From Acidimicrobiia bacterium (GTDB lineage: Bacteria > Actinomycetota > Acidimicrobiia > Spongiisociales > Spongiisociaceae): a DNA stretch of 64,000 nucleotides. The stretch covers positions 2,023 to 66,022 of the forward strand of contig VXMP01000003.1 of assembly GCA_009841075.1 (NCBI GenBank), in the 5' to 3' direction. The notes under the pieces were generated by a model. The model was not told the origin of the DNA, made no database searches, and worked only from the letters and a program-made list of their open reading frames with translations. Below are positions 7,438 through 61,502 of this stretch, piece after piece (positions within the stretch are counted from its first letter, which is position 1; each line of letters opens with the position of its first letter). The translations under genes and the position numbers were made by a program.

Positions 7438-8511
7438 ATGGCCGAAAGTAACCTGCCAAAATCCCATTTGAGCATCGGAGCCGGCCGGCATCCGGTTCAA
7501 CCAAGGAGAGTTTCCCTGTCCGTATTGCCTTTTGTTTCGGTGGTTATGGCGGTGCGGGACGAGGCCGCCTATATCGAGGCCACCTTGCGGGCCATCTTCG
7601 ACCAGGACTATGCGGGCGACCTGGAAGTGGTGGTTGCCGATGGCGGGAGCACAGATGGAACCCTGGATATCTTGGAGGAATGGGCTTCTAAGGAGCGCCG
7701 CCTGACCGTAATCAACAACCCGGAGGGAGTGGTCGGGGCCGGTCTGAACCGGGCGATAGAAATGTCCACCGGCGAGGTGCTGGTTCGTTGCGACGGACAT
7801 GCCGAGCTCCCCTTGGACTACGTAGGAAGAGCGGTTCGGACCCTCCGTCAAACCGGGGTGGCCAACGTGGGAGGACGCCAGCTTCCGGTGGGCAATAGCC
7901 CGGCCCAAAAGGCCATCGCCGCCGCCATGGGTTATCAGATGGTGGTAGGGAACGCCCGGTTCAGGCGATCCAAACGGGCCGGCCCGGCCGATACCGTCTA
8001 TCTCGGAGTATTCGAACGTGAGGCTCTCGACCGGGTGGGAGGATTCGACCCGGGCCTGGTCCGTAATCAGGATTACGAGCTCAACTATCGGCTGAGGAAG
8101 GCGGGAGAGGTGGTGTGGTTCGACCCGGGCCTGTCCGTTAACTACCGGCCCAGATCCGGCCTAAGGGCGCTGTGGAGACAGTACCTCGACTACGGAAGAT
8201 GGAAACGGAAGATGCTGGCCGGTAATCCGGGAGCCCTCGCCATCCGGCAATTGGCGGCTCCGGCGCTGACGTTAGGGCTGGCCGGCTCGATTATCGGTGG
8301 CCTGGCGGGCCGGGCCGGTTGGTGGATACTCCCCGCCCTATACGGAGCCCTGGTGGTGGGGATTACCCTCACCGAGCTGATCAAACGCCCCGATCCGGCT
8401 GCCCTGCTGCTCCCTGCCGTGATTCCGATCATCCATCTGGGTTGGGGGATCGGTTTCTTATTCCTACCGGTCCGGCGGCGTAGGACCCTTCCAGAAGAAG
8501 GCCCGGGCTAA
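7438..8511 (+). CDS. Family-2 glycosyltransferase (ExoA-like) with C-terminal TM helices
   Basis: 357 aa. FVSVVMAVRDEAAYIEATLRAIFDQDY, EVVVADGGSTDGT and RNQDYELNYRL, followed by a hydrophobic tail. Confidence 0.85.
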   Translation: MAESNLPKSHLSIGAGRHPVQPRRVSLSVLPFVSVVMAVRDEAAYIEATLRAIFDQDYAGDLEVVVADGGSTDGTLDILEEWASKERRLTVINNPEGVVGAGLNRAIEMSTGEVLVRCDGHAELPLDYVGRAVRTLRQTGVANVGGRQLPVGNSPAQKAIAAAMGYQMVVGNARFRRSKRAGPADTVYLGVFEREALDRVGGFDPGLVRNQDYELNYRLRKAGEVVWFDPGLSVNYRPRSGLRALWRQYLDYGRWKRKMLAGNPGALAIRQLAAPALTLGLAGSIIGGLAGRAGWWILPALYGALVVGITLTELIKRPDPAALLLPAVIPIIHLGWGIGFLFLPVRRRRTLPEEGPG

Positions 8512-10533
8512 CAAGGTGGCCATCTGACCCCTGGTAAGCGGATCATCCGGACAGAAGGTGGTGGCAGTGCATCCGATGGTTATTCCTTCGTTGGCGATGG
8601 CATAGATTGCCCCCCGATGAGTGTGTTCTGCCGACACATCCTCAAACGTCTTACCGTCGAATGATGCGGCGGGTTCCAGATCCAACGATCTGGCCAGGAA
8701 GGCGGCCATCTGGCCTCTGGTGAGCAGAGCATCCGGGCAGAAGGTGGTCGTGGTGCACCCCTTGGTTATCCCGGCTGCAGCGATGGCGTAGATCACCTCG
8801 GCGAACCGGTGTCCTTCCGGAACGTCCTCAAAAGACGGATCATAGGGCGGAATCGGCCACCTCAGTCGCTGAGCCGTGGCTAGATGATGCGCCATTTCCT
8901 GGCGTTTGGCCTGGTCGTTAGGGCAGAAGTTGGAGCCGGTATCTCCGCATCCCAAGGCTGAATTGTTCCTCCACAGGGTTAGTATGCCTTCCCTATGATT
9001 GCTGTCGGCTATATCCTGGAAGAGAGGCAGCTGGTCAAACACAAGGACTCGTTCTTCGACCAGATCGTCCGGCGCTTGTCCCTCTCCTCTTCCTTCTTCT
9101 TCTTCCGGTGGAAGGGTAGGTGTTGCGGTGGGTGAGGCCGGTTCGTCATCTATCGCATAAATAACCGAGGACCGGAGCCCCAGACCATAGCGAAGCCATC
9201 CTCCGGCGGCAGTGGTGGTAACCCCTTCGCCGTTGTTAACCCCCTCGAATCTCACCCTAGACACACTGTTAACGGCCGGCGCGGACACCAGCCGAACATC
9301 GGTTACCTCGTCCCAGCCCAACAGCCCGGCGATCCGCTCGGCAGAAATGGTCTTACGCCAAAACGACACCGGACTGCCCAGCGCCGGGAGTGTATCCCAA
9401 GGGTCCGCCACCGGATATAGATACGGCCACTGGGCGACGTTGATGGCCCGCCCGTCCCATTCGGTAAAAAACCCGTACCGATTGCTGTTGGTAAACCCTC
9501 CCGAAGAGGCCGAATAGAAGGCCTGGATGATTCCCCCCTTGGTGTAGCGCTCCCAATCATCTCCGAAGTAGGTGAGCACCCGGCCTTCGGTGTTTTTAAC
9601 GCCGGTTACCCAAGCCTCATGGTCCGGGCCGTTCTTCCTCCACCATCCTACGTATACCTGATCCCGGGTGTTGTCGTACAGATGACACCAGCAGGAGTCC
9701 ATACGGGAGGCGGTAATCCCCGGGTCCTGATTGGGATCGGCCGGTCGAGGCACCACCTCCCGGGCGAAAAACTTGTAGGCGGCGTAGGTTCGGGCCGCTA
9801 TCGCCTGGGCCTCGTTCACCCCCGGGTTCTTCCATTCGACCAGAATCTCGGCGATCCCCCTGACGTAATCTTCCAGGCCGATTGTCAAGAGAACGTGGAA
9901 ACCCAGATCAACCGGGTCGTCCCTGATCTTGAGCTCGCCATGACGGTACTCGCACTCTTCGCTCCTGAGCCCGCACGGCCTGGATCGATCTTCCCCGTAA
10001 CGCAGCCTTACCCCGTCCGCCTCCGGCCAGGAGATCGAAGCCCGACAGTCGCCCGAGGTCCCTTGCAAGACACCCCCCTGGTAAAAGCCACATTCGCCGG
10101 ACCTGATACGACGAAACTCCCAGCGCTCCCCCGACCGAGGCTGCTCCGGTTTGGGGCAGGGGCCTTCGCCGTCTCCCGCCAGGCAGAGCTCCAGTGGACC
10201 TCCCACGGCGGTGAACTCCAACAGGGTGATCCCCGAGGCGATGTTCACCCACAGCGGGTTGTCCAGCGTGGTGAGCAAGTCGTTGGGTAGGTCTAGATCG
10301 GACAGATCGGCCGGTTGCGAATCTGTGTAGTAGTAGGAGGCGATTTCTTCACCGGATTTATCGGGATCGTCCAGCGACTGGCCGTAGGCCCCCCATTGGC
10401 TCATTCCCACCCCGTGTCCCCATCCCGACCCCTCGAACGTAAATACCAGGTCCTCCTGGGCGGCTACTTGAACCGTAAAAGCCAAGAGGCCCAACAGAGA
10501 AAATGCAAGGAGCCTTTTGATCACGCCGGACAT
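8464..10533 (-). CDS. Secreted SpoIID/LytB-domain protein with three C-terminal SLH-like repeats
   Basis: 689 aa with a signal peptide. SpoIID hallmarks: GSGWGHGVGMSQWGAYG, AIAARTYA, DQVY and FYSASSGGFT. The C-terminus has 3 repeats of F(E/Q)D(V/I)...GIT.GC...FCP...LTRGQMA.(F/L)LAR, an S-layer-homology-like pattern. Confidence 0.85.
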   Translation of the reverse strand: MSGVIKRLLAFSLLGLLAFTVQVAAQEDLVFTFEGSGWGHGVGMSQWGAYGQSLDDPDKSGEEIASYYYTDSQPADLSDLDLPNDLLTTLDNPLWVNIASGITLLEFTAVGGPLELCLAGDGEGPCPKPEQPRSGERWEFRRIRSGECGFYQGGVLQGTSGDCRASISWPEADGVRLRYGEDRSRPCGLRSEECEYRHGELKIRDDPVDLGFHVLLTIGLEDYVRGIAEILVEWKNPGVNEAQAIAARTYAAYKFFAREVVPRPADPNQDPGITASRMDSCWCHLYDNTRDQVYVGWWRKNGPDHEAWVTGVKNTEGRVLTYFGDDWERYTKGGIIQAFYSASSGGFTNSNRYGFFTEWDGRAINVAQWPYLYPVADPWDTLPALGSPVSFWRKTISAERIAGLLGWDEVTDVRLVSAPAVNSVSRVRFEGVNNGEGVTTTAAGGWLRYGLGLRSSVIYAIDDEPASPTATPTLPPEEEEGRGEGQAPDDLVEERVLVFDQLPLFQDIADSNHREGILTLWRNNSALGCGDTGSNFCPNDQAKRQEMAHHLATAQRLRWPIPPYDPSFEDVPEGHRFAEVIYAIAAAGITKGCTTTTFCPDALLTRGQMAAFLARSLDLEPAASFDGKTFEDVSAEHTHRGAIYAIANEGITIGCTATTFCPDDPLTRGQMATLLARAFFWKGPTPPDR

Positions 10534-15137: not shown

Positions 15138-16691
15138 TTACCCCGCTAAAGCTCCGGCTTCGAATAGGGCGTAGCGGCCTTGGACGGCCACCGGACCGGA
15201 CCCATTCTGCAGCTGAGCCGGCATCCGGTCGGTACGGACCAGCACCAGGTCGGAGGGGTTTATTCGATCTACCGCAACGGACCCCGGTGGTTCTGCCGGT
15301 AGATCCCAGTAGTAGCTCACCCAGCGCGGAAGCGGATCCACCCCTTCCGCTACCCACCCCACCCTCTGGCCCTCCGCCGGTGCTACCTCCCTTAGAAGAC
15401 GGCCCGCCTCGGAAGGGACATCGAAGTAGGCCTCCCTGTATATATCCATTCCGAGGAGGCCGGTTCCCGCCAGCCAGATCACGGCTGCCGCGGTCGCTAT
15501 CCGAACACCCTGCCCCCAGGTGGTCTGATCCCGGTTAACCAACCAGGTCGAACCCAATCGATCCAAGCCGGCCGCCATCCCCAGGCAGATAGGAACCAGG
15601 AGCGGAAAGGTCCAATAGTCGTGGATAAGAGCGGAATCAGGGTTGACCACCGTCCAAACCCCGAGCGCGACCCCGATCGACACCGCAGGGAGACGGGTGC
15701 GGCGGTCAACGGCGGCATAGACCAGAGCGGGGACCATCAGCCAACGGAACCAGCTCGGAAAGAGGGTGTTGTAGAACCAGCGGTAGTTCTCCACCAGGTC
15801 GGATAAAGGTGGCCATTGCCGTCTTATTGCGACATGATTTGCCAACTCGGCGGTATCCCCCACCGTCACCGCCCAGACCAGTGTGACCAGCACAGCTATA
15901 GCGCCTGCCGAACCCATTTGCCAGGAGACCTGCCGAAACCCGGGTCGACGTAAACCCCATCCGGCCAGGGCCGCTACCAGCAGAACCCCTATCCAGGAGG
16001 AGAATGCCGCCGCAGCTGCCGCCAACCAAAGGCCGGCCGAAGCAGGTCGGGTACTCCGAATAACCGGTCGGTAGGGTTGGTACGGATTTCCTGTTTCGTA
16101 TCCGTAGGCTCTCAGCCGGCGTACCCAAAGGGCCACCAAGACCACCATGATGAACATCCCGATCCCCAGCCGGGCATAGATCCAGAACATGGGAGTGTTG
16201 ATCACCAGCACCAAAGCCGCCAAGGTCGCCCCACCCCCGATAGAAAGCTCGCCGGCCAACCAGATCAGAGCCACGACCGTCCCCAGTCCGGCCAGATATC
16301 CGATCAGGTGCAGCTGCCATTCCCCCTGGCCGAACACCGAGCCGATCAAGGCCTGCATCAGGTTGAGCAAAGGCGGATGATGGACATAGGGTTGCGGTGA
16401 GAACGGGGCCATGGACGCCAGGAAATCCGAGCCCGACAGCCCGTTTTCCAGAAAGTTGCGAACCTGCAAGCCCAACCGACCGTTGATCCGTCCGTCATGG
16501 CTCGCACCCAGCGGTAGAAACAGCAGCGGCCACCACCCCGCCGCCAGAACGGCGATCGCCAAACCTCCCCCCACCGTGACCATCCGGGGTCGTAATCTGA
16601 AAACCGGATCGGGGTTTTTAATCATCCTCCCGAACCTTAGGTCAGGCGTTGATTCAAAAATGGGTTTGCCGCTTCCGGTTCGGGCAGGCAA
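15138..16691 (-). CDS. GT-C fold membrane glycosyltransferase (ArnT/PMT-like), paralog 2
   Basis: 517 aa, polytopic. PYVHHPPLLNLM motif. The N-terminal TM plus LPLGASHDGRINGRLG aligns with the paralog's LPLGDSDDGRILARFG. An alternative start MIKNPD at 16625 is possible. Confidence 0.8.
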   Translation of the reverse strand: MPARTGSGKPIFESTPDLRFGRMIKNPDPVFRLRPRMVTVGGGLAIAVLAAGWWPLLFLPLGASHDGRINGRLGLQVRNFLENGLSGSDFLASMAPFSPQPYVHHPPLLNLMQALIGSVFGQGEWQLHLIGYLAGLGTVVALIWLAGELSIGGGATLAALVLVINTPMFWIYARLGIGMFIMVVLVALWVRRLRAYGYETGNPYQPYRPVIRSTRPASAGLWLAAAAAAFSSWIGVLLVAALAGWGLRRPGFRQVSWQMGSAGAIAVLVTLVWAVTVGDTAELANHVAIRRQWPPLSDLVENYRWFYNTLFPSWFRWLMVPALVYAAVDRRTRLPAVSIGVALGVWTVVNPDSALIHDYWTFPLLVPICLGMAAGLDRLGSTWLVNRDQTTWGQGVRIATAAAVIWLAGTGLLGMDIYREAYFDVPSEAGRLLREVAPAEGQRVGWVAEGVDPLPRWVSYYWDLPAEPPGSVAVDRINPSDLVLVRTDRMPAQLQNGSGPVAVQGRYALFEAGALAG

Positions 16692-17658
16692 ACTTCAGGG
16701 CGTGCCTACCGAATCCCCCCGGTCCTCCGTGGACGTAAGCGTGGTCCTTCCGGTCTACAACGAAGCCGGCCACCTGGCCACCGAGGTAGACCGGATCCGG
16801 GCCGCCCTGGAAGACTCCCCTTACCGATACGAGATTCTGGTGGTAGACGACGGATCAACCGACGGCGGCCCGCAGGAGTTGGCCGATCTGGAAGGGGTGC
16901 GGCGGATCACCTTCCACCGGAACCGGGGATCCGGAGCGGCGCGGCAGGCCGGCACCGCCCTGGCCCAAGGGGAAATCGTGGTTTGGACGGACGTGGACAT
17001 GACCTACCCGAACCATCAGATCCCCGAGCTGGTCGACAACTTGGCAGGTTGGGACATGGTGGTAGGGGCTCGGCAGGCGGAACAGGGAACGCGGCGGTTG
17101 GTCCGTATCCCGGCCAAATGGCTGATCAGAAAGCTGGCCGCCTTTCTGGTCCGAACCAGGATTCCGGATCTGAACTCCGGCTTCCGAGCCTTCCGCAAAA
17201 CCGTAGCCGACCAGTACATGCATCTTCTGCCCAGCGGTTTCAGCTGCGTCACCACCCTGACCATGAGCTTCCTGTCCAACGGATATTCGGTACGCTATGT
17301 TCCGATCGATTACGCCCCCCGGGCGGGCAAGTCGAAGTTTCACTGGTGGAAGGACACCCTTCGCTACCTTCGGCAGGTGGTACGGATGGTTCTCCTATGG
17401 GATCCGTTCCGGTTCTTCGCCCCCTTCGGCGTGGTGGTTGGCCTGGGCGGGATGGGCAAATTGGTATACGACCTGGTCACCAAGGATCTGCGGGTGGCCA
17501 CCAACACCATCGTCCTGCTGATAATCGCCGCCCTGTTTCTACTGATCGCCCTGGTCACCGATCTTCTGGTCCAGCTGAACCGGCCCCGCTATACCGTCCT
17601 CCCCGCCTACACCGCCGAACCTGATCAAGGGAAGGCTGCCGAAGATCCGTTCCTATAG
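16660..17658 (+). CDS. Polyprenyl-phosphate sugar synthase (Dpm1/GtrB-like GT2) with C-terminal TM helices
   Basis: VSVVLPVYNEAGHL, ILVVDDGSTDGG, DVDMTYP and two C-terminal TM segments. The track ORF starts at 16411, which would overlap the divergent GT-C gene by 280 nt. I chose ATG 16660; GTG 16729 is also possible. Confidence 0.8.
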   Translation: MGLPLPVRAGKLQGVPTESPRSSVDVSVVLPVYNEAGHLATEVDRIRAALEDSPYRYEILVVDDGSTDGGPQELADLEGVRRITFHRNRGSGAARQAGTALAQGEIVVWTDVDMTYPNHQIPELVDNLAGWDMVVGARQAEQGTRRLVRIPAKWLIRKLAAFLVRTRIPDLNSGFRAFRKTVADQYMHLLPSGFSCVTTLTMSFLSNGYSVRYVPIDYAPRAGKSKFHWWKDTLRYLRQVVRMVLLWDPFRFFAPFGVVVGLGGMGKLVYDLVTKDLRVATNTIVLLIIAALFLLIALVTDLLVQLNRPRYTVLPAYTAEPDQGKAAEDPFL

Positions 17659-28076: not shown

Positions 28077-29360
28077 ATGACACTAAGAGATGACTTGGAT
28101 AAAATATCTGACTATGGTACATTCAAAGATAGTCTGAATGCTCCGATACACAGGTGGTTCACCTATCCAGCCGGCTACTCATACCGGTTGGTCGAGGCAA
28201 AATGTTCCCAACATTCACTTGGCCCAGGCAGTCGCATAGCCGACCCCTTTGTGGGGACTGGTACCACGTCTTTAGCAGCTAAAACATTGGGCCTGGATTC
28301 AGTTGGGGTGGAAGCGCATCCGTTTGTTCACTGGGTAGCCCAAACCAAGCTTGAAAGCGATCATGATCCTTATCTTTTAGAAAAAGAATCTCAAATGATT
28401 CTGGACCATGCGATGGATATCTGCACAGAAGGGGTTTCTGAAAGGGCGCAATGGCCTGACCTCATATACAAGTGTTTTGACAACAGGAACCTAGACCGTT
28501 TATACGCCTTGAGAATCGCAGTTCTACAGACTGCCTATGAGCGCCAAGACTTTTTCAAGCTGGCCCTGACGGCTGCTCTGAGGGACACTACATCTGCTGG
28601 AGCGGGATGGCCTTATATAGCTCCCAGCAAGTTCGCTAAGCGAAAGGTGGTTCGTAACGCTTTTGAAGAGTTTGCTAAACGCTGCGAACTTATGGCCGAT
28701 GATGTCCGTTCTTACAACCCGATAAGGTCTGATCACAATCTTGTGCAGGGCGATGCTAGGTCATTAGCTTGGTATACAGGGGAGTCCAGCATCGATATGG
28801 TTCTCACTTCTCCCCCTTATTTGAACAATTACGACTATGCCGACCGGACCAGGATGGAGACCTATTTCTGGGGCATATATAACAGCTGGGCAGATATCAC
28901 GGCGAACGTGAGAGACAAGCTAATGATGTCCGCCACCACACAGGTCCGAAGAAAAGCTATGTCCACAATTCAGAAAATGCCTGTTGTGCAATCACTGGAT
29001 CCAAAGGTACACCGAGAATTGAGCGAAGCCGTCGAGCGGTTAGCAGAACTGCGTAATCAAAAATCCGGGAAAAAATCCTATGACCTGATGACGGCCGGTT
29101 ATTTTGAGGATATAGCAAGAGTTGTCATTCAGGCCTTTTCTGTATTGAAACCAGGTTGCCCGTTCATTCTGGTACTTGGAGATTCGGCACCCTACGGAGT
29201 ACATATACCCACCGATGAAATAATCGGGCGCTTGGCCATTGGAACGGGATTTGCTGATTACAGCGTTGAGGTCATCCGTACACGGGGTGATAAATGGGCA
29301 GGTAATTCTCAACGGCATAAGGTCCCACTCCGTGAGAGCATTGTCACGGTGATCCGATGA
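28077..29360 (+). CDS. Type II DNA methyltransferase (amino-MTase, N4C or N6A), motif I before SPPY
   Basis: 427 aa. ADPFVGTGTTSLAA (motif I, residue ~56) and MVLTSPPYLNNYDY (motif IV, residue ~245). The region is AT-richer than its flanks. Confidence 0.85.
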   Translation: MTLRDDLDKISDYGTFKDSLNAPIHRWFTYPAGYSYRLVEAKCSQHSLGPGSRIADPFVGTGTTSLAAKTLGLDSVGVEAHPFVHWVAQTKLESDHDPYLLEKESQMILDHAMDICTEGVSERAQWPDLIYKCFDNRNLDRLYALRIAVLQTAYERQDFFKLALTAALRDTTSAGAGWPYIAPSKFAKRKVVRNAFEEFAKRCELMADDVRSYNPIRSDHNLVQGDARSLAWYTGESSIDMVLTSPPYLNNYDYADRTRMETYFWGIYNSWADITANVRDKLMMSATTQVRRKAMSTIQKMPVVQSLDPKVHRELSEAVERLAELRNQKSGKKSYDLMTAGYFEDIARVVIQAFSVLKPGCPFILVLGDSAPYGVHIPTDEIIGRLAIGTGFADYSVEVIRTRGDKWAGNSQRHKVPLRESIVTVIR

Positions 29361-30112
29361 TGTCTAATCCTGCGGCTGCGCTCGGGCAGGAAATCGGAAA
29401 ATTATTTGAGGCCTTCATCGTTGAGAGATTGCGCCCGCCGGTGGAAGAAAGGTCCCATACGATTGAACCTCAGCGGATGGTGAACGGAACCGGCAATGTG
29501 TATCAAATAGACGCAGTTATCTCGAACTCTACGGGCAAACCAATCATGATACTTGATCCCAAATATATACGTTATAAAAAGCACAACCGTGACAAGGGAA
29601 GCTGGCTATGCGTAGCTCACTACAACCTCCGTAAAACATATCCGACCATCAGAAAGACCACAGCTGTCTTGGCTGGCAACTGGTCTAAAACCTCCCTCGA
29701 TTTGATAGATAGTTTTGGCATAGAAGTAATAACACAGGAATTCTCCACCATGGTGGAAATTTTGGGGGAATACGGTATTGAGTTCGACTGGGCGGAGAAA
29801 GATCGAACTACTCCGGCTAATTCGCTAGCTGCCTTTAACCGTCTTAGAAGAGGAGACAAGGTAAGTCTGGCCCATTCTCTAGCCGACGGGATTATGCCGA
29901 AACTCACTTCCTCGGTTTTAGATGTAATAGAAGGAACAAGTGAATCGGTACGAAGTCGTGTTACCCAAGTAGAAGTACTATTAAAGACTGATCGTCAGGA
30001 GATGCTCCTTCTAAAATATGGGTCCGTAGCAGATACAATTAGTGGCTTAGTTGATTTTATGGATGATCGTTCGGATGTGAGTGACCTGCTAGGCAAAAAG
30101 CCCGCGAATTAA
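29357..30112 (+). CDS. Putative type II restriction endonuclease (PD-(D/E)xK-like) partner of the upstream MTase
   Basis: 251 aa. 4-nt start/stop overlap with the MTase (ATGA). YQIDAVISN...IMILDPKYIRYKKH fits D...(D/E)xK. I recognise no other family motif. Confidence 0.6.
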   Translation: MMSNPAAALGQEIGKLFEAFIVERLRPPVEERSHTIEPQRMVNGTGNVYQIDAVISNSTGKPIMILDPKYIRYKKHNRDKGSWLCVAHYNLRKTYPTIRKTTAVLAGNWSKTSLDLIDSFGIEVITQEFSTMVEILGEYGIEFDWAEKDRTTPANSLAAFNRLRRGDKVSLAHSLADGIMPKLTSSVLDVIEGTSESVRSRVTQVEVLLKTDRQEMLLLKYGSVADTISGLVDFMDDRSDVSDLLGKKPAN

Positions 30113-56784: not shown

Positions 56785-57321
56785 ATGGATATCGGCGCAA
56801 TCATCACTTCAGTCCTCTCCTACCTGGGTGCCCTGGGCGTGCTCGTCCTGTACCAAGAAACCGCCCGCCGCAAGGACATCGAGAGCATACGAACCGAAAT
56901 GCAAACCGGATTCTCCGAATTAAGAACCGAAATAGCTGATCAACGGACCACCCTCGACAACGGACTCTTCGAAATCCGAACCGAGATGGCCGCCCAACGC
57001 GAAGAGGTAAATACCCGACTCGCCGAAGTCGACAACCGAATGAGCGAAGTCCGAACCGAAATGAACACACTACGCACCGACGTCGACAACCGACTCGGCG
57101 AAGTGCGAACCGAGATGAACGGCGTCAGGGGAGAGATGGGTGCTCTACGCACCGACCTGACCACCCGGGAATCCACCCTTCGAGGAGAAATGCAAAACGG
57201 TCTCAAGGAGCTTCGAGGCGAAATAGCCGCCTATAGGCCCCGGCCTGAACCCCAGGGGGAGGGAGAACCTCAGGATAAGGAAGCAGAGGCTATGTCCGCC
57301 GCATCAAAAGCGGGCTTATAG
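56785..57321 (+). CDS. N-terminally anchored coiled-coil protein with (E/D)(V/I)RTEM-type repeats
   Basis: 178 aa. TM helix IITSVLSYLGALGVLVLY, then repeated IRTEMQ / LRTEIA / IRTEMA / VRTEMN / VRTEMN / LRGEMQ / LRGEIA blocks with roughly 11-residue spacing. Confidence 0.65.
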   Translation: MDIGAIITSVLSYLGALGVLVLYQETARRKDIESIRTEMQTGFSELRTEIADQRTTLDNGLFEIRTEMAAQREEVNTRLAEVDNRMSEVRTEMNTLRTDVDNRLGEVRTEMNGVRGEMGALRTDLTTRESTLRGEMQNGLKELRGEIAAYRPRPEPQGEGEPQDKEAEAMSAASKAGL

Positions 57322-57667
57322 TACCCAGGAAAGGTAACAATACATGTCTGACACCAATCAACCCCAACCAAGCCCCGAACAGAAACCCGAACCCTACGAC
57401 AAGGTCTACGCCTTACGAATATTGCCAGGTAACGGCCCGATTGATCCAGAGTTGGCGGCCTCACTGGAAAAGGTGTTCGAAAACGCCGATAAGGATCCGG
57501 ATAGCTTTCGCAATAACCCGGCCAAAAAGAAAGCCGCCCTAGAAGGCCTCGGCAAGCTACTCGAAGAGTGGCAAGCCGAAAACGGTGCCTTCACCGAGGA
57601 AGAACTCGCCTGGGCCCACAAAACCCTATACGGCGAATGACCCTCATCCTAGACACCGGCGCGCTCA
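57314..57667 (+). repeat. Direct repeat copy 1 (antitoxin gene plus first ~9 codons of the PIN gene)
   Basis: It aligns by eye with 58106-58457. The last ~120 bp are nearly identical and the 5' part is more diverged. Confidence 0.8.
57344..57640 (+). CDS. Putative antitoxin of the downstream PIN toxin (unrecognised family)
   Basis: 98 aa. The stop overlaps the PIN start as ATGA. AGGAAAGG lies upstream of the ATG. I could see no RHH, AbrB, Phd or HTH motif. Confidence 0.6.
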   Translation: MSDTNQPQPSPEQKPEPYDKVYALRILPGNGPIDPELAASLEKVFENADKDPDSFRNNPAKKKAALEGLGKLLEEWQAENGAFTEEELAWAHKTLYGE

Positions 57668-58026
57668 TCGCCGTCGAAAGTAGTGACCGTGAAGTGTTAT
57701 CCCTACTCCAAGAGGCCTTCTTGAACCACGAAGAAGTTCACGTACCGGCCGGTGTCATCGCCCAAGCCTGGAGAAAACCGGAGCGGCAAGTTCTACTGAC
57801 TCGTACCCTCAAACAATGTAAGGAAATCCCGCTGGACGGAGAAACCGCCCGATCCTGTGGACAGCTCTGCGGTAAAACCCGAACCGACGACGTGATCGAT
57901 GCGTCAGTAGCAATCGCCGAAGCCAAGAGGTTCCCTGGGGGAGTCACTCTTCTCACCTCTGACCGACGGGACATGCAAGTGCTGCTTTCCGTCTCCGGTA
58001 TCAGCGTGGATCTCGTTGATGTCTGA
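57637..58026 (+). CDS. PIN-domain toxin (VapC-like)
   Basis: 129 aa from ATG 57637: MTLILDTGALIAVE (Asp6), DDVIDASVAIAE and LLTSDRRD. These give the PIN acidic residues in the expected order. Confidence 0.8.
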   Translation: MTLILDTGALIAVESSDREVLSLLQEAFLNHEEVHVPAGVIAQAWRKPERQVLLTRTLKQCKEIPLDGETARSCGQLCGKTRTDDVIDASVAIAEAKRFPGGVTLLTSDRRDMQVLLSVSGISVDLVDV

Positions 58027-58135
58027 GCCAACGGCCTAGGCAGTGAGGATACGAAAGAGCCGTGGCATAGAGATTGCAGAAATCGTTCCCTACGGAACAA
58101 GGCCAGCTTATAGATCCCAGGAAATGGTAACAATT

Positions 58136-58432
58136 ATGTCTGACACAAATCAACCCAAACCAAGCTCCAAAAAGAACTCCAAGCCCTACGAGAAGGTCTA
58201 TGCTATACGAATATTGCCTGGTAGAAGCCCGGTTGATCCGGAGTTAGCCGCCTCCCTGGAAAAGGTTTACGAAACCAACGCCCGCGACCCAAACCGATGG
58301 CACAATAACCCGGCCAAAAAGAAGGCTGCCCTAGAAGGCCTCGGCAAACTACTAGACGAGTGGGAAGCCGAAAACGGTGCCTTCACCGAGGAAGAACTCG
58401 CCTGGGCCCACAAAACCCTCTACGGCGAATGA
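58136..58432 (+). CDS. Second copy of the antitoxin (orphan; its toxin is truncated)
   Basis: 98 aa from ATG 58136. The C-terminal 45 aa are almost identical to 57344-57640 (NNPAKKKAALEGLGKLL.EW.AENGAFTEEELAWAHKTLYGE). Confidence 0.65.
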   Translation: MSDTNQPKPSSKKNSKPYEKVYAIRILPGRSPVDPELAASLEKVYETNARDPNRWHNNPAKKKAALEGLGKLLDEWEAENGAFTEEELAWAHKTLYGE

Positions 58433-58457
58433 CCCTCATCCTCAACACCGGCGCTCA
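58429..58457 (+). pseudogene. Stub of a second PIN toxin gene (about 9 codons, Asp6 changed to Asn)
   Basis: MTLILNTGA compares with MTLILDTGA in the intact copy. Downstream sequence is unrelated, and the convergent gene's stop codon (58499) lies 42 nt beyond the breakpoint. Confidence 0.6.
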
Positions 58458-58498
58458 GATGTACGGGGTACAGCGGTGTAATGAGGTTTTAGCCTCTA

Positions 58499-59002
58499 CT
58501 AATTATCAGAAAGATCGAATGCAGACAAGACGGCTTCTATAGTACGAGTGTCCCGCAATTTGCAGACAACATTTGGATTAGAGAAAAGACCTTTTGCTCT
58601 GTAACCCCGTTCCTTAGTTTTGAGCCACCGCACCGGCACAACCATCTCGATTACCTCAGGATCATCTGAGATTGCCCCCTGCTTCCAATCCTGGCTCAAG
58701 CCCGGTTGATCCATGAGTAACTGGCTCTTACCATTTTTGACTTTGGCTTCTCTCCCCGGGATCATCGGGCCGGTAACCTCACCGATTCCTACATACCCCT
58801 GTTTAGGAACATAGGCGAAAACCCGACTCCCCGGTTTAAGTTGACCCAGCCGTTTCCAGTACTGCGATCCGTGCCCGGCATTAAGGAAGCCGTACTTACG
58901 GGCAATTTCCCAGCGGCCATCTTCCTTACTTCGGCCTAGAACCACATAGAAGTCACGGCCATTCCAGGAACGACTTTTGCTGTGTGCCATTTCAACAGAC
59001 AT
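58499..59002 (-). CDS. Uncharacterised 167-aa protein, possibly a PUA/EVE-like beta-barrel
   Basis: ATG 59002 is preceded by AAGGAGG at 6-nt spacing. YGFLNAGHGSQYWKRLGQLKPGSRVFAYVPKQGYVGIGEVTG resembles the 'GD-x-V-F-Y...G-i-G' core of EVE/PUA-like readers. This is a weak, motif-level call only. Confidence 0.4.
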   Translation of the reverse strand: MSVEMAHSKSRSWNGRDFYVVLGRSKEDGRWEIARKYGFLNAGHGSQYWKRLGQLKPGSRVFAYVPKQGYVGIGEVTGPMIPGREAKVKNGKSQLLMDQPGLSQDWKQGAISDDPEVIEMVVPVRWLKTKERGYRAKGLFSNPNVVCKLRDTRTIEAVLSAFDLSDN

Positions 59003-59187
59003 CGACACCCTCCTTCATCAGTTCGACCTCAGAATACCTACCTGTTCCAGCTCGGTATTAACCCGCCTCTTACAACCTGCAACGTGATTCCAGTTAAGAG
59101 GGGTTGTCAGTTCCTGTTTTCGGTGAATGTGGAGCACGCCGACTACCCAAAACCGTGCTACAGATTCAAAGTGTCCGAGCCAGCTTC

Positions 59188-59193
59188 TATAGT
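59188..59193 (+). promoter_or_regulatory. TATAGT -10-like hexamer 8 nt upstream of the ATG; the transcript may be leaderless
   Basis: There is no purine-rich SD before ATG 59202. TATAGT ends 8 nt before the A of the ATG. Similar TATAG(T/A) hexamers sit upstream of both antitoxin copies (57317, 58109). Confidence 0.3.
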
Positions 59194-59201
59194 ATGAGTT
59201 T

Positions 59202-61502
59202 ATGTCGATTCTTAATAAGAACCCCGCTGGTCTCTACAAGATATTTCCTCAGCCTCTCCTAGGGCTTATGCTTGCAATAGAGCAAGGCACCCTAGGCCTT
59301 CCTGAAATACAACGGCCTTTCGTCTGGAAGTCCAGTAAAGCTCGCGATCTTCTTGACTCAATGTACAGGGGTTACCCGGTAGGAACATTGCTGTTCTGGA
59401 ATACAGGTGCCAAAGAAGGTATGAGACAGATTGGAAATGTCAAGGAAAATGTACCTGCTACAGCAATAGTTGATGGTCAGCAGCGACTTACATCTTTATA
59501 TGCGATCATGTCAGGCAACCCAGTTTTAGATAAGAACTTTCAGCATAGAAAAATACGGGTTGCCTTTAGCCCGACTTTAGAAAAATTTGAAGTAACTAAC
59601 GCAGCTATCCAAAAAAATCCCGAGTATATTCATGATATTGCCAAAATATGGGATGATTTTTTTCACGCTCAAAACAAGTTTCTAACTAAACTTTCTCATA
59701 GCCTAAATAGAGAACTATCGAAAGAAGAGACTAGTATCTATCGAAATCGTATAATTAAGGTAAATGAACTACAAAAATTTGATTTCCAAGTTATTGAAAT
59801 TAACGCCCAAGCAGATCCCGCGGTAGTTGCAGAAATCTTTGTGAGAACTAACTCCAAGGGCGTAGTTCTCAATCAGTCGGACTTCATCCTTACTTTGATG
59901 TCGGTTTTCTGGGACAAGGGCAGACGAGAATTGGAGGACTTCTGCCGACAGGCTACCGACCCAAGAGGTAAAGGCCCCTCTCCCCGCAATCCCTTTATTG
60001 ATCCCAGTCAAACACACATGCTACGGGCAGTTGCAGGTCTAGCTTTCCGGCGCGGAAGGTTAGAAATGGTGCACAGTCTTCTGGGGGGCAAGAACCTTGA
60101 TACCGGAGAGGTCTCTGAGGAAATACGAGAAAAGCATTTTGATATTTTTGTAAGGGCGCAAGAGGAGGTTCTGGATCTCACCAACTGGCATGAGTTCCTG
60201 AAATGCCTGACCATGGCAGGTTTTAGGTACCGTCGGATGCTCACCTCGGAATTGACCCTTATTTATTCATACGTCTTATGGCTGATAGGTATGCGTGATA
60301 CCGATCTTGATAAAAAATCTCTACAAGTATTAATCGCTCGATGGTTTTTCATGGCCCACACCACTCGTCGCTATACCGGATCTCCAGAAACAAGACTGGA
60401 GGCTGACCTCGCTCGAGTGTCCGAGGCTGGCAGTGATGGAAAGGCCTTCCTCAACAAGCTGAACCAGATTATTGATCTGGAACTAACCAACGATTACTGG
60501 ACGATTACCCTTCCTAACGATCTCAATACCACCGCAACAAAATCGCCGGCGTTATCTGCCTATTGGGCCTCTCTAGTGCTGCTGGACGCCCAGGCACTAT
60601 TTGGTAATCTGCACGTTAGAGATCTCCTCAACCCCACAATTACCCCGCCTAGATCATTGGAACGCCACCATCTATTCCCTAAGGCCTATCTAAGCAGTAT
60701 TGGCGTCAGACAAAAACAATGGAATGCCATCGCCAACATGTCCTTCGTTGACTGGCCAGAAAACGCTTCGATTGGTTCAAAAAGCCCTGCTGAGTATTTA
60801 CCTTCTCTGAAGAACCGAATACCTTCCAAGCAGTGGGAGCAACAAGCCTATCATCACGCCCTTCCTTTCGGATGGGAACAACTTGATTATCATTCTTTTC
60901 TTGAAAAACGGCAAAAACTGATGGCAAAGGTAGTTCGTGAAGGATTCAGTCGTATTGATCAAATTTTTAATTATAGTATACCTAATTATGATAAAACAAT
61001 TAGTGAGCGGTCTGTAGGCGACCTGATAGAAGCTGGAGAATCCCAAACATTAGAGTTCAAATCGACCGCCCGATACAACCTGAAGGCTGCCAGGCCTGAT
61101 AAGAGAACGGAGCACGCCATTGTAAAAACGGTGTGCGGGTTCCTCAACTCTGATGGTGGAATATTATTGATTGGGGTGGATGATGAAGGCAGGGTCCTAG
61201 GACTCGAAGACGATCTAGCCACCTTTTCAAAGTCCAACCTGGACCAATATGAACTCTGGTTGCGACAGCGTCTGGAGGCAGACCTGTCCCATTCAACTGC
61301 AGGTGTTTTAAAAGTTGAGTTCCCGGCCATTTCTGATCGCCGGGTGTGCAAGGTTTCTGTAGAACCGGCAGGGTCTCCCGTTTTCGCGAAGCCAACGGAG
61401 GGGAACCTTCCTAAAAACGACTTCTGGGTAAGAAAAGGCAACGCCACCAAGCAGCTGTATGGAAATCACCGCCTTAACTATATCAAAGAACGTTGGAATT
61501 AG
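59202..61502 (+). CDS. DUF262 (ParB-like) + DUF1524-type His-Me nuclease (GmrSD family) fused to a C-terminal Schlafen/AlbA_2 domain
   Basis: 766 aa. LPEIQRPFVW...YPVGTLLFWN and VDGQQRLTSLY (DUF262). SLERHHLFPKAYL...IANMSFVDWPENASIGSKSP (DUF1524-like). ESQTLEFKSTARYNL...VCGFLNSDGGILLIGVDDEGRVLGLEDD (AlbA_2). Confidence 0.75.
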   Translation: MSILNKNPAGLYKIFPQPLLGLMLAIEQGTLGLPEIQRPFVWKSSKARDLLDSMYRGYPVGTLLFWNTGAKEGMRQIGNVKENVPATAIVDGQQRLTSLYAIMSGNPVLDKNFQHRKIRVAFSPTLEKFEVTNAAIQKNPEYIHDIAKIWDDFFHAQNKFLTKLSHSLNRELSKEETSIYRNRIIKVNELQKFDFQVIEINAQADPAVVAEIFVRTNSKGVVLNQSDFILTLMSVFWDKGRRELEDFCRQATDPRGKGPSPRNPFIDPSQTHMLRAVAGLAFRRGRLEMVHSLLGGKNLDTGEVSEEIREKHFDIFVRAQEEVLDLTNWHEFLKCLTMAGFRYRRMLTSELTLIYSYVLWLIGMRDTDLDKKSLQVLIARWFFMAHTTRRYTGSPETRLEADLARVSEAGSDGKAFLNKLNQIIDLELTNDYWTITLPNDLNTTATKSPALSAYWASLVLLDAQALFGNLHVRDLLNPTITPPRSLERHHLFPKAYLSSIGVRQKQWNAIANMSFVDWPENASIGSKSPAEYLPSLKNRIPSKQWEQQAYHHALPFGWEQLDYHSFLEKRQKLMAKVVREGFSRIDQIFNYSIPNYDKTISERSVGDLIEAGESQTLEFKSTARYNLKAARPDKRTEHAIVKTVCGFLNSDGGILLIGVDDEGRVLGLEDDLATFSKSNLDQYELWLRQRLEADLSHSTAGVLKVEFPAISDRRVCKVSVEPAGSPVFAKPTEGNLPKNDFWVRKGNATKQLYGNHRLNYIKERWN

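Follow-up and report, generated by a model that had tools for sequence, protein, structure and literature searches.

BrxU-type restriction enzymes and the prokaryotic Schlafen proteins are the described systems closest to the gene considered here, a 766-amino-acid (aa) open reading frame (ORF) in a 64,000-nucleotide (nt) window, meaning the whole stretch of DNA analyzed, from an Acidimicrobiia bacterium (assembly GCA_009841075.1, contig VXMP01000003.1, positions 2,023 to 66,022, forward strand). BrxU, which corresponds to HEC-05 (Payne et al.), is a Type IV enzyme of 587 aa encoded within a BREX operon on the E. fergusonii plasmid pEFER, with structures under PDB 7p9k and 7p9m. It forms an intertwined dimer that ATP converts to monomers, dissociation and re-association both being needed for cleavage, and its substrates are DNAs carrying 5-methylcytosine (5mC), 5-hydroxymethylcytosine (5hmC) or glucosylated 5hmC (glc-5hmC) (PMC8565348). 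The RLFDS motif serves in nucleotide binding and as the dimer switch, the role of its S42 being known; a role for the DGQQR motif has been documented in both BrxU and HEC-06; and D474, H475, S42, Q101, and R102 are essential, defense being lost in the D474A and H475A mutants (for BrxU, PMC8565348).

Prokaryotic Schlafens (pSlfn) have been surveyed by Perez Taboada et al. (Nat Microbiol 2026, PMC13056530), who described 5,930 unique proteins, 1.8% of them fused to DUF262, defined the family motif as Ex4(E/D)xK, and showed that EcoSlfn7, a DUF262-Slfn protein of E. coli UC4224, lowers the efficiency of plating of many coliphages, that of T7 by 538-fold. The mechanistic work in that study was on another fusion, RorSlfn5, which cleaves the anticodon arms of transfer RNA (tRNA) once triggered (PMC13056530). 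CbCash, a Schlafen tRNase switched on by cyclic tetra-adenylate (cA4), passes from an inactive dodecamer to active filaments, and published prokaryotic and mammalian structures indicate that a single Schlafen lobe must pair or oligomerize to act. An AlbA_2 domain had already been listed among those usually appended to the C-terminus of GmrSD proteins (Jablonska et al., 2017, PMC5714182). How the DUF262-Schlafen class works is not yet explained in the literature, in which no paper was found that dissects the class or notes that its partner is a complete BrxU-type enzyme; in the protein described here that partner is predicted to be such a full enzyme, beyond DUF262 alone.

The ORF has an ATG start and encodes a single polypeptide with three modules. 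It is probably a single-gene anti-phage defense protein of the DUF262-Schlafen class, which is defined by domain composition and includes the protective EcoSlfn7; on sequence comparison and analogy, a BrxU-like sensor and DNA nuclease gated by nucleoside triphosphate (NTP) would control a tRNA-cleaving Schlafen domain. A sequence-only reading of the window had placed three signatures in this one ORF and assigned it to the GmrSD/BrxU-type defense nucleases, and on both points it was borne out: the coordinates and all six quoted peptide motifs were located (IQRPFVW at residues 36-42, DGQQRLTSL at 91-99, ERHHLFPKAYL at 487-497, NMSFVDWPEN at 512-521, ESQTLEFK at 613-620, and FLNSDGGILLIGVDDEG at 647-663), Pfam, hhalign, AlphaFold2 (AF2), and Foldseek agree, and the assignment follows from the Pfam GmrSD_N match and from the hhalign and Foldseek matches to BrxU. 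Matches to PF03235 (GmrSD_N) and PF04326 (SLFN_AlbA_2) both lie far above the curated gathering thresholds, and the best PADLOC match of the protein is HEC-05 (E=1.3e-33). The features of the gene are as follows, counts out of 81, or out of 78 in the Schlafen domain, referring to aligned family sequences.

59202..61502, + strand: complete ORF, predicted BrxU-like GmrSD core followed by a Schlafen RNase domain (homologs span residues ~8-766 at 40-86% identity)
59286..59891, + strand: DUF262/GmrSD_N domain, a predicted ParB/Srx-fold NTPase, residues 29-230 (Pfam PF03235, E=1.3e-31; aligns with the BrxU N-domain)
59343..59360, + strand: RDLLDS motif, residues 48-53, aligned with BrxU RLFDS, S53 falling on BrxU S42 (D52 and S53 in 81/81)
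59472..59486, + strand: DGQQR NTP-hydrolysis motif, residues 91-95 (conserved in 81/81)
59922..60611, + strand: all-helical linker domain, residues ~241-470 (AF2 secondary structure, hhalign to BrxU, Foldseek)
60612..60971, + strand: predicted BrxU-type His-Me (HNH, DUF1524-like) nuclease domain, residues ~471-590 (hhalign in register with BrxU; AF2)
60660..60683, + strand: ERHHLFPK, residues 487-494, the H489-H490 dyad falling on BrxU D474-H475 of DHIYP (H490 in 71/81, L491 in 81/81)
60723..60764, + strand: HNH-motif asparagines N508, N512, and N521 (80/81, 80/81, and 68/81)
60972..61034, + strand: predicted flexible tether between core and Schlafen domain, residues 591-611 (per-residue model confidence, pLDDT, <50 at 591-598; low identity; core-only relatives stop at ~585)
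61035..61499, + strand: single-lobe Schlafen/AlbA_2 RNase domain, predicted, residues 612-766 (Pfam PF04326, E=1e-16 at 613-751)
61038..61061, + strand: putative Ex4ExK catalytic motif E613, E618, and K620 (aligned with rat SLFN13 E205/E210; 77/78, 78/78, and 78/78)
61182..61184, + strand: D661, putative counterpart of the third catalytic residue of rat SLFN13, D248 (alignment spacing; 77/78)

Public records (P0001; loci L081 and L082) call the product as 664 aa from Met103. That start drops residues 1-102, including RDLLDS and DGQQR, so that Pfam sees GmrSD_N only weakly there. Because homologs align from residue ~8-11 onward, the 766-aa reading is correct and the public start is, on the evidence of these alignments, an annotation error.

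Within the N-terminal domain the QR, DS, and DGQQRL motifs of DUF262 are invariant among the 81 aligned sequences. Further along the chain, an hhalign comparison of a 33-sequence family profile with BrxU (pEFER, L083:18711-20471) gave 98.5% probability (E=1.8e-15), rising to 98.8% (E=6e-17) with a two-clade, 68-sequence profile in which residues 15-583 fall on BrxU 4-579. The register places RHHLFPK on BrxU VDHIYPK, N508, N512, and N521 on N505, N509, and N518, and RDLLDS on RLFDS. A first AF2 model built from a shallow one-clade alignment (pLDDT 71, with the His-Me and Ex4ExK regions <50) was replaced by one from a two-clade alignment, with pLDDT 88.8 and a predicted TM-score (pTM) of 0.72, in which disorder is confined to residues 1-7 and 591-598 and the finger elements (beta 488-490, beta 513-516, alpha 529-537) are of high pLDDT. 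In Foldseek searches of the PDB the top match was BrxU 7p9k_A (E=5.5e-12, probability 1.00, 647 aligned columns over 580 residues), followed by the bacterial AlbA_2 protein DIP2311, SLFN14, SLFN13, SLFN11, the SAMD9 DNA-binding domain, and SLFN5; the global TM-score to BrxU is low (0.30-0.38), as expected with flexibly linked domains. The DUF1524-like His-Me finger of the sequence-only reading is thus recovered by hhalign, AF2, and Foldseek to BrxU, with signals that greatly exceed chance, yet without a Pfam match. By alignment and model, residues 1-590 are a complete BrxU-branch GmrSD enzyme with its NTPase and HNH sites intact. Mean pairwise identity is 0.56 in DUF262, 0.54 in the helical domain, and 0.45 in each of the His-Me and Schlafen domains, and falls to 0.19 in the tether, the sole internal region for which AF2 predicts no order.

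The resemblance to BrxU extends to the RLFDS-like and DGQQR motifs, the helical linker, and the HNH finger, at an overall identity of only ~17-25%; BrxU differs in having no Schlafen domain, a DH dyad, and a place within a BREX operon, whereas the window gene stands alone. SspE, the nickase of the Ssp phosphorothioate system, and the classical GmrSD enzymes (Eco94, CT596) are likewise built from a DUF262 domain with DGQQR and a C-terminal HNH, the NTPase gating the nuclease, but SspE and EcoCT GmrSD have no RLFDS motif. An SspE-type assignment was rejected, the PADLOC match to SspE being weak (E=3.3e-4, residues 30-116) and SspE not appearing among the Foldseek matches, and no sspABCD genes occur in the window flanks. 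The classical GmrSD assignment was also set aside in favor of the BrxU branch.

The last ~160 aa, read from the letters as AlbA_2/Schlafen, proved to match PF04326 in a profile search, and sequence and profile searches of the PDB returned, for this domain, SLFN8/13, SLFN14, SLFN11, SLFN12, and SLFN5. The motif E613-SQTL-E618-F-K620 fits the prokaryotic Ex4(E/D)xK pattern, and in a phmmer alignment to PDB 5yd0 the residues E613, E618, and D661 fall on E205, E210, and D248, the catalytic residues of rat SLFN13 (PMC5862951). What is present here is one lobe, equivalent to the mammalian nuclease's C-lobe. Position 661 is fixed as Asp, whereas at the neighboring D660 Asp occurs in only 22 sequences. 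When the Schlafen domain alone was searched against 1.84 billion representatives, 6,378 matches reached E<=1e-3 and 40 of them E<=1e-30; the best matches are between ~130 and ~1,170 aa long, the shortest perhaps including fragments, and in most the domain lies at or near the C-terminus. Since the same subtype is C-terminal in proteins of many lengths, it behaves as a portable C-terminal cassette. Relatives at 27-39% identity were also seen on plasmids (H64, H60, and H61) under other annotations, namely an N-6 DNA methylase in Pseudoalteromonas nigrifaciens and an 'ATP-binding protein' beside a phospholipase-D-like protein in Leptolyngbya, and these may be further Schlafen fusion or neighbor partners linked to restriction-modification.

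RorSlfn5 and CbCash resemble the window protein in their single Schlafen lobe, E-x4-(E/D)-x-K site, and regulatory fusion partner, and in both of them activation involves a change of oligomeric state. The partners differ, being an Ig-like sensor of phage tail chaperone in RorSlfn5, a Csx15 cA4 sensor in CbCash, and a nuclease/NTPase here, and so does the domain order, the catalytic residues of RorSlfn5 (E15/D20) and CbCash (E17/D22) lying near the N-terminus whereas the Schlafen domain is C-terminal here. Mammalian SLFN11, SLFN13, and SLFN14 share the homologous RNase fold and the catalytic triad (E613/E618/D661 here), and SLFN11 couples a DNA-sensing module to a tRNase; the mammalian chains carry two lobes and a helicase-like domain, whereas the window protein has one lobe and a GmrSD core.

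The survey of this architecture and its neighbors that had been proposed with the sequence-only reading found the fusion widespread, with no conserved partner gene. Two homolog searches listed at least 240 distinct clusters at 90% identity, all of ~750 aa and all with PF03235 and PF04326. A survey of contigs from one genome per species confirmed 282 relatives, of which the best 80 were examined; the hosts of these 80 belong to Actinomycetota, Alpha- and Gammaproteobacteria, Acidobacteriota, Planctomycetota, Gemmatimonadota, Bacteroidota, Chloroflexota, Myxococcota, and methanogenic archaea. The fusion also occurs on haloarchaeal plasmids, and its distribution across bacteria and archaea is patchy. 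The closest homologs of the window protein among the matches listed are mostly from Actinomycetota, several of them Acidimicrobiia, and its own genome is of high guanine-plus-cytosine (GC) content. Core-only relatives at 47-50% identity (Methanosarcinaceae, Methanothrix, Streptomyces) end at about residue 585, without a Schlafen domain. In one locus (L080, a Kineosporiaceae metagenome-assembled genome) two paralogous GmrSD-core genes lie ~6 kb apart, at 8001-9881 and 15738-17333, the first having a ~100-aa non-Schlafen tail and a total length of 699 aa.

The active sites of this family are not retained equally. DGQQR with S53, and the Schlafen tetrad E613/E618/K620/D661, are each kept in all 77 fused members, whereas the HNH triad H490/N512/N521 is kept in only 63 of them. 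The catalytic His is absent from 10 of the 77, comprising eight members of a Streptomyces clade (L018, L020, L022-L025, L028, and L074), one from Lentzea (L077), and one from Bryobacteraceae (L071), with HH replaced by DN, DR, SN, or GN in Streptomyces, YQ in Lentzea, and HL in Bryobacteraceae. Most of these HNH-degenerate members have also lost the terminal Asn, L071 having His at that position, and DGQQR is retained in every one, as are all the Schlafen catalytic residues. The reverse pattern, a lost Schlafen site with HNH kept, was seen in no fused member (n=77), and the HNH triad is present in all four core-only relatives. In the window protein the NTPase, HNH, and Schlafen sites are all intact. 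This asymmetry argues that the Schlafen site is a catalytic effector under constant selection, with the NTPase as its indispensable partner. From the pattern of substitution, the HNH nuclease has the look of a second effector, retained as a rule yet open to loss.

The same asymmetry bears on what the C-terminal domain does. The protein could be a Type IV modification-dependent nuclease in which HNH is the sole effector and the AlbA_2/Schlafen domain a non-catalytic nucleic-acid binder that tunes target recognition, as the AlbA superfamily includes pure DNA and RNA binders, the Foldseek matches include the SAMD9 DNA-binding domain and SLFN5, several mammalian Schlafens are without catalytic residues, and the HNH and NTPase motifs of the window protein are intact. 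That arrangement is distinctly unlikely: a tetrad kept throughout, with D661 fixed beside a variable D660, is what an active site would show and a binding surface would not, the 10 fused homologs that have no HNH His and keep the Schlafen site must have an effector other than HNH, and the characterized prokaryotic Schlafen domains are tRNases governed by their fusion partners. The suggestion in the sequence-only reading that the added domain may supply a sensing or specificity function is consequently not supported, and conservation and analogy favor a catalytic effector role for the Schlafen domain over one in binding or specificity.

At the other extreme, the Schlafen RNase could be the sole effector and the whole GmrSD core, HNH included, an NTP-driven sensor or switch, with DNA cleavage playing no part in defense. 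This would agree with the general model proposed for pSlfn fusions (PMC13056530) and with the loss of HNH residues in at least three lineages against no loss of DGQQR or the Schlafen site. It is nonetheless disfavored by the retention of HNH in most lineages, and we think it rather improbable, as the triad is intact in the window protein and in the majority of fused members across phyla at ~40% identity, the near-invariance of N508 and N512 points to continued selection, and core-only relatives keep the triad too.

The preferred reading, of a BrxU-like core controlling a Schlafen tRNase, can be set out as a sequence of steps. The core would rest as an intertwined dimer, NTP binding and hydrolysis would drive its monomer-dimer cycling on foreign DNA, and its HNH site would cut that DNA. 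The same conformational or oligomeric switch may pair two Schlafen lobes, which together would form an active tRNase and lead to tRNA depletion and translation arrest. Since a lobe needs pairing and the BrxU core switches oligomeric state on NTP, the simplest inference is that the core cycle controls Schlafen pairing and with it tRNA cleavage. The Schlafen RNase and the NTPase would be indispensable in such a scheme and the HNH DNA nuclease a second effector lost in some lineages. More tentatively, and at somewhat less than even likelihood, the protein may be a two-substrate immune enzyme in which one NTP-driven switch inherited from BrxU licenses both HNH cleavage of DNA and paired-lobe cleavage of tRNA, the HNH arm being dispensable and the Schlafen arm carrying abortive infection.

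Several observations weigh against the preferred reading. PF07510 (GmrSD_C/DUF1524) finds no match in residues 440-600 even at E<=10, Pfam, NCBIfam, and permissive Pfam scans of residues 240-600 return no DUF1524, and the model matches only 1 of 33 homologs, at E=0.1; this miss is uninformative for the BrxU branch because BrxU, run as a control, itself falls below the PF07510 threshold (E=0.0056; 17 bits, where 23 are required). The dyad is HH here and DH in BrxU, and HH dyads are known in other HNH enzymes, for example the colicin DNases. The likeness to EcoSlfn7, that of a DUF262 followed by a Schlafen domain in a single gene, lies at the level of domain composition, and what is published for EcoSlfn7 is a defense phenotype only. 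The phage against which EcoSlfn7 acts best, T7, is not known to carry hypermodified DNA, so a BrxU-style modified-cytosine trigger may not apply and the class may sense something other than modified cytosines. The core-Schlafen coupling, the trigger, and the RNA substrate are inferred, the coupling purely so, and the two nuclease sites could act independently. Finally, the window flanks are mostly metabolic (M20 peptidase, S15 peptidase), and the nearby defense-like genes are only a fragment-like PDC-S11 homolog and toxin-antitoxin-like pairs.

With those flanks, with toxin-antitoxin-like pairs directly upstream, and with 30.4% of pSlfn genes lying away from known defense genes (PMC13056530), the gene could be imagined as having no immune role at all: it might serve a small mobile islet as its toxin or addiction module, or act in nucleic-acid processing as a housekeeping enzyme. 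This seems very improbable given its patchy distribution in bacteria and archaea, its low-GC islet, the recurrence of homologs beside or inside Type I restriction-modification (R-M) and other defense loci, the homology of the core to the defense enzyme BrxU, and the protection of E. coli by a protein of the same composition (PMC13056530).

The sequence-only reading knew of no characterized member with this three-domain layout, a view that has to be given up in light of the 2017 listing (PMC5714182) and of the 2026 catalog with its protective EcoSlfn7 (PMC13056530); this is accordingly no new kind of system. An enterobacterial full-length relative was not found by tblastn against plasmids (queried first with the whole protein, then with just its Schlafen domain), by tblastn against phages, or among the matches listed by the two homolog searches, the second of which was seeded from a gammaproteobacterial member. 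The contribution made here lies in the observation that the NTPase and Schlafen sites are never lost and HNH is lost repeatedly, which leads to a hypothesis as to which parts sense and which kill, and in the related hypothesis of a DNA-sensing restriction enzyme wired to tRNA cleavage, in parallel with human SLFN11. If the two-substrate proposal is true, the enzyme would be a bacterial counterpart of the SLFN11 route from DNA sensing to tRNA cleavage, and the published description of a 'DUF262 sensor plus Slfn effector' would understate a protein that combines a whole restriction enzyme with an RNase held in reserve. The natural HNH-degenerate members could be used to ask whether the Schlafen arm suffices for defense.

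The neighborhoods of homologs are consistent with a gene that acts alone. The window neighbors (a 169-aa PDC-S11-like ORF, PIN-like and antitoxin-like genes, and a coiled-coil protein) do not recur beside homologs in the 80 loci, and all-against-all clustering of flanking ORFs gave no universal partner and minority associations only; a single-gene system therefore follows, and a multi-gene system was rejected for want of a conserved partner gene. Type I hsdM, hsdS, and hsdR lie directly beside homologs in ~5-9 loci, and PADLOC applied to 124 immediate neighbors returned Type I REase and specificity subunits, Type II/IIG methyltransferases, SoFic, GajB-like helicases, DpdF, and MADS components. 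Among 63 loci, a minority have Type I R-M, Type II methyltransferase, SoFic, DpdF, or MADS genes right next to the homolog. GmrSD-like genes have been published as often embedded in Hma and Type I R-M systems, with which the survey agrees.

Around the gene itself GC content is 0.36-0.52 across the ORF against ~0.60 in the surroundings, being mildly depressed from ~56.5 kb onward. The gene converges on the S15-peptidase gene, the ORFs being separated by 26 bp (61502, 61529). A search for an integrative element found neither a tRNA anywhere in the window nor convincing repeats on either side of the GmrSD-Slfn ORF, and a promoter and terminator scan gave site counts not above shuffled expectation. 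The other features of the window are listed here.

59165..59193, + strand: weak promoter-like site TTCAAA-17-TATAGT, 8 nt 5' of the ATG
58499-59008, - strand: 169-aa ORF upstream of and divergent from the GmrSD-Slfn gene (PADLOC PDC-S11, C-terminal half only, E=1.5e-45)
56785-57321, + strand: 178-aa coiled-coil protein encoded by degenerate 54- and 75-nt DNA repeats ('E(V/I)RTEM...' units), with a weak DUF2730 match
28077-30112, + strand: predicted Type II R-M pair inserted between two genes for AMP-binding enzymes, in a further patch of low GC (0.47-0.48)

The 169-aa ORF matches model positions 197-356 of 358 in PDC-S11, an untested PADLOC candidate, and has no Pfam, NCBIfam, or PDB sequence match; homologs on plasmids, at 37-39% identity, carry annotations as NucS/DUF91-domain endonucleases, and the ORF is a remnant left by truncation or else a domain that stands alone. 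It is flanked by a 22-nt direct repeat (19/22 identical; AGMCRGCTTCTATAGTAYGAGT) at 58528-58549 and 59178-59199, the second copy ending 3 nt 5' of the GmrSD-Slfn start codon. The chance expectation of such a pair is ~0.04 in the 5.6-kb region by a rough estimate, and the pair could mark a small insertion.

Further upstream lie two copies of a ~300-nt segment, 80% identical to each other (57307-57606 and 58099-58398), giving two ~98-aa antitoxin-like genes in the region 57344-58542. Behind the first copy comes a 152-aa toxin-like ORF (57568-58026) with LILDTGALIAVE, which is PIN/VapC-like by eye, and behind the second only a short remnant (58360-58542); none of the antitoxin-like, toxin-like, or remnant ORFs has a Pfam match even at E<=10. 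In the related public contig L081 the toxin-like ORF is only 72% identical, against 100% for the GmrSD-Slfn protein over the called 664 aa. The 178-aa coiled-coil gene stands at the upstream edge of the GC-depressed stretch. In the R-M pair a 427-aa N6/N4 DNA methyltransferase (PADLOC MTase_II, E=7e-68) is accompanied by a 251-aa ORF that matches REase_II weakly (E=1e-7); given its presence, host DNA is probably methylated at N6-adenine or N4-cytosine, a modification that the co-resident BrxU-like enzyme must tolerate.

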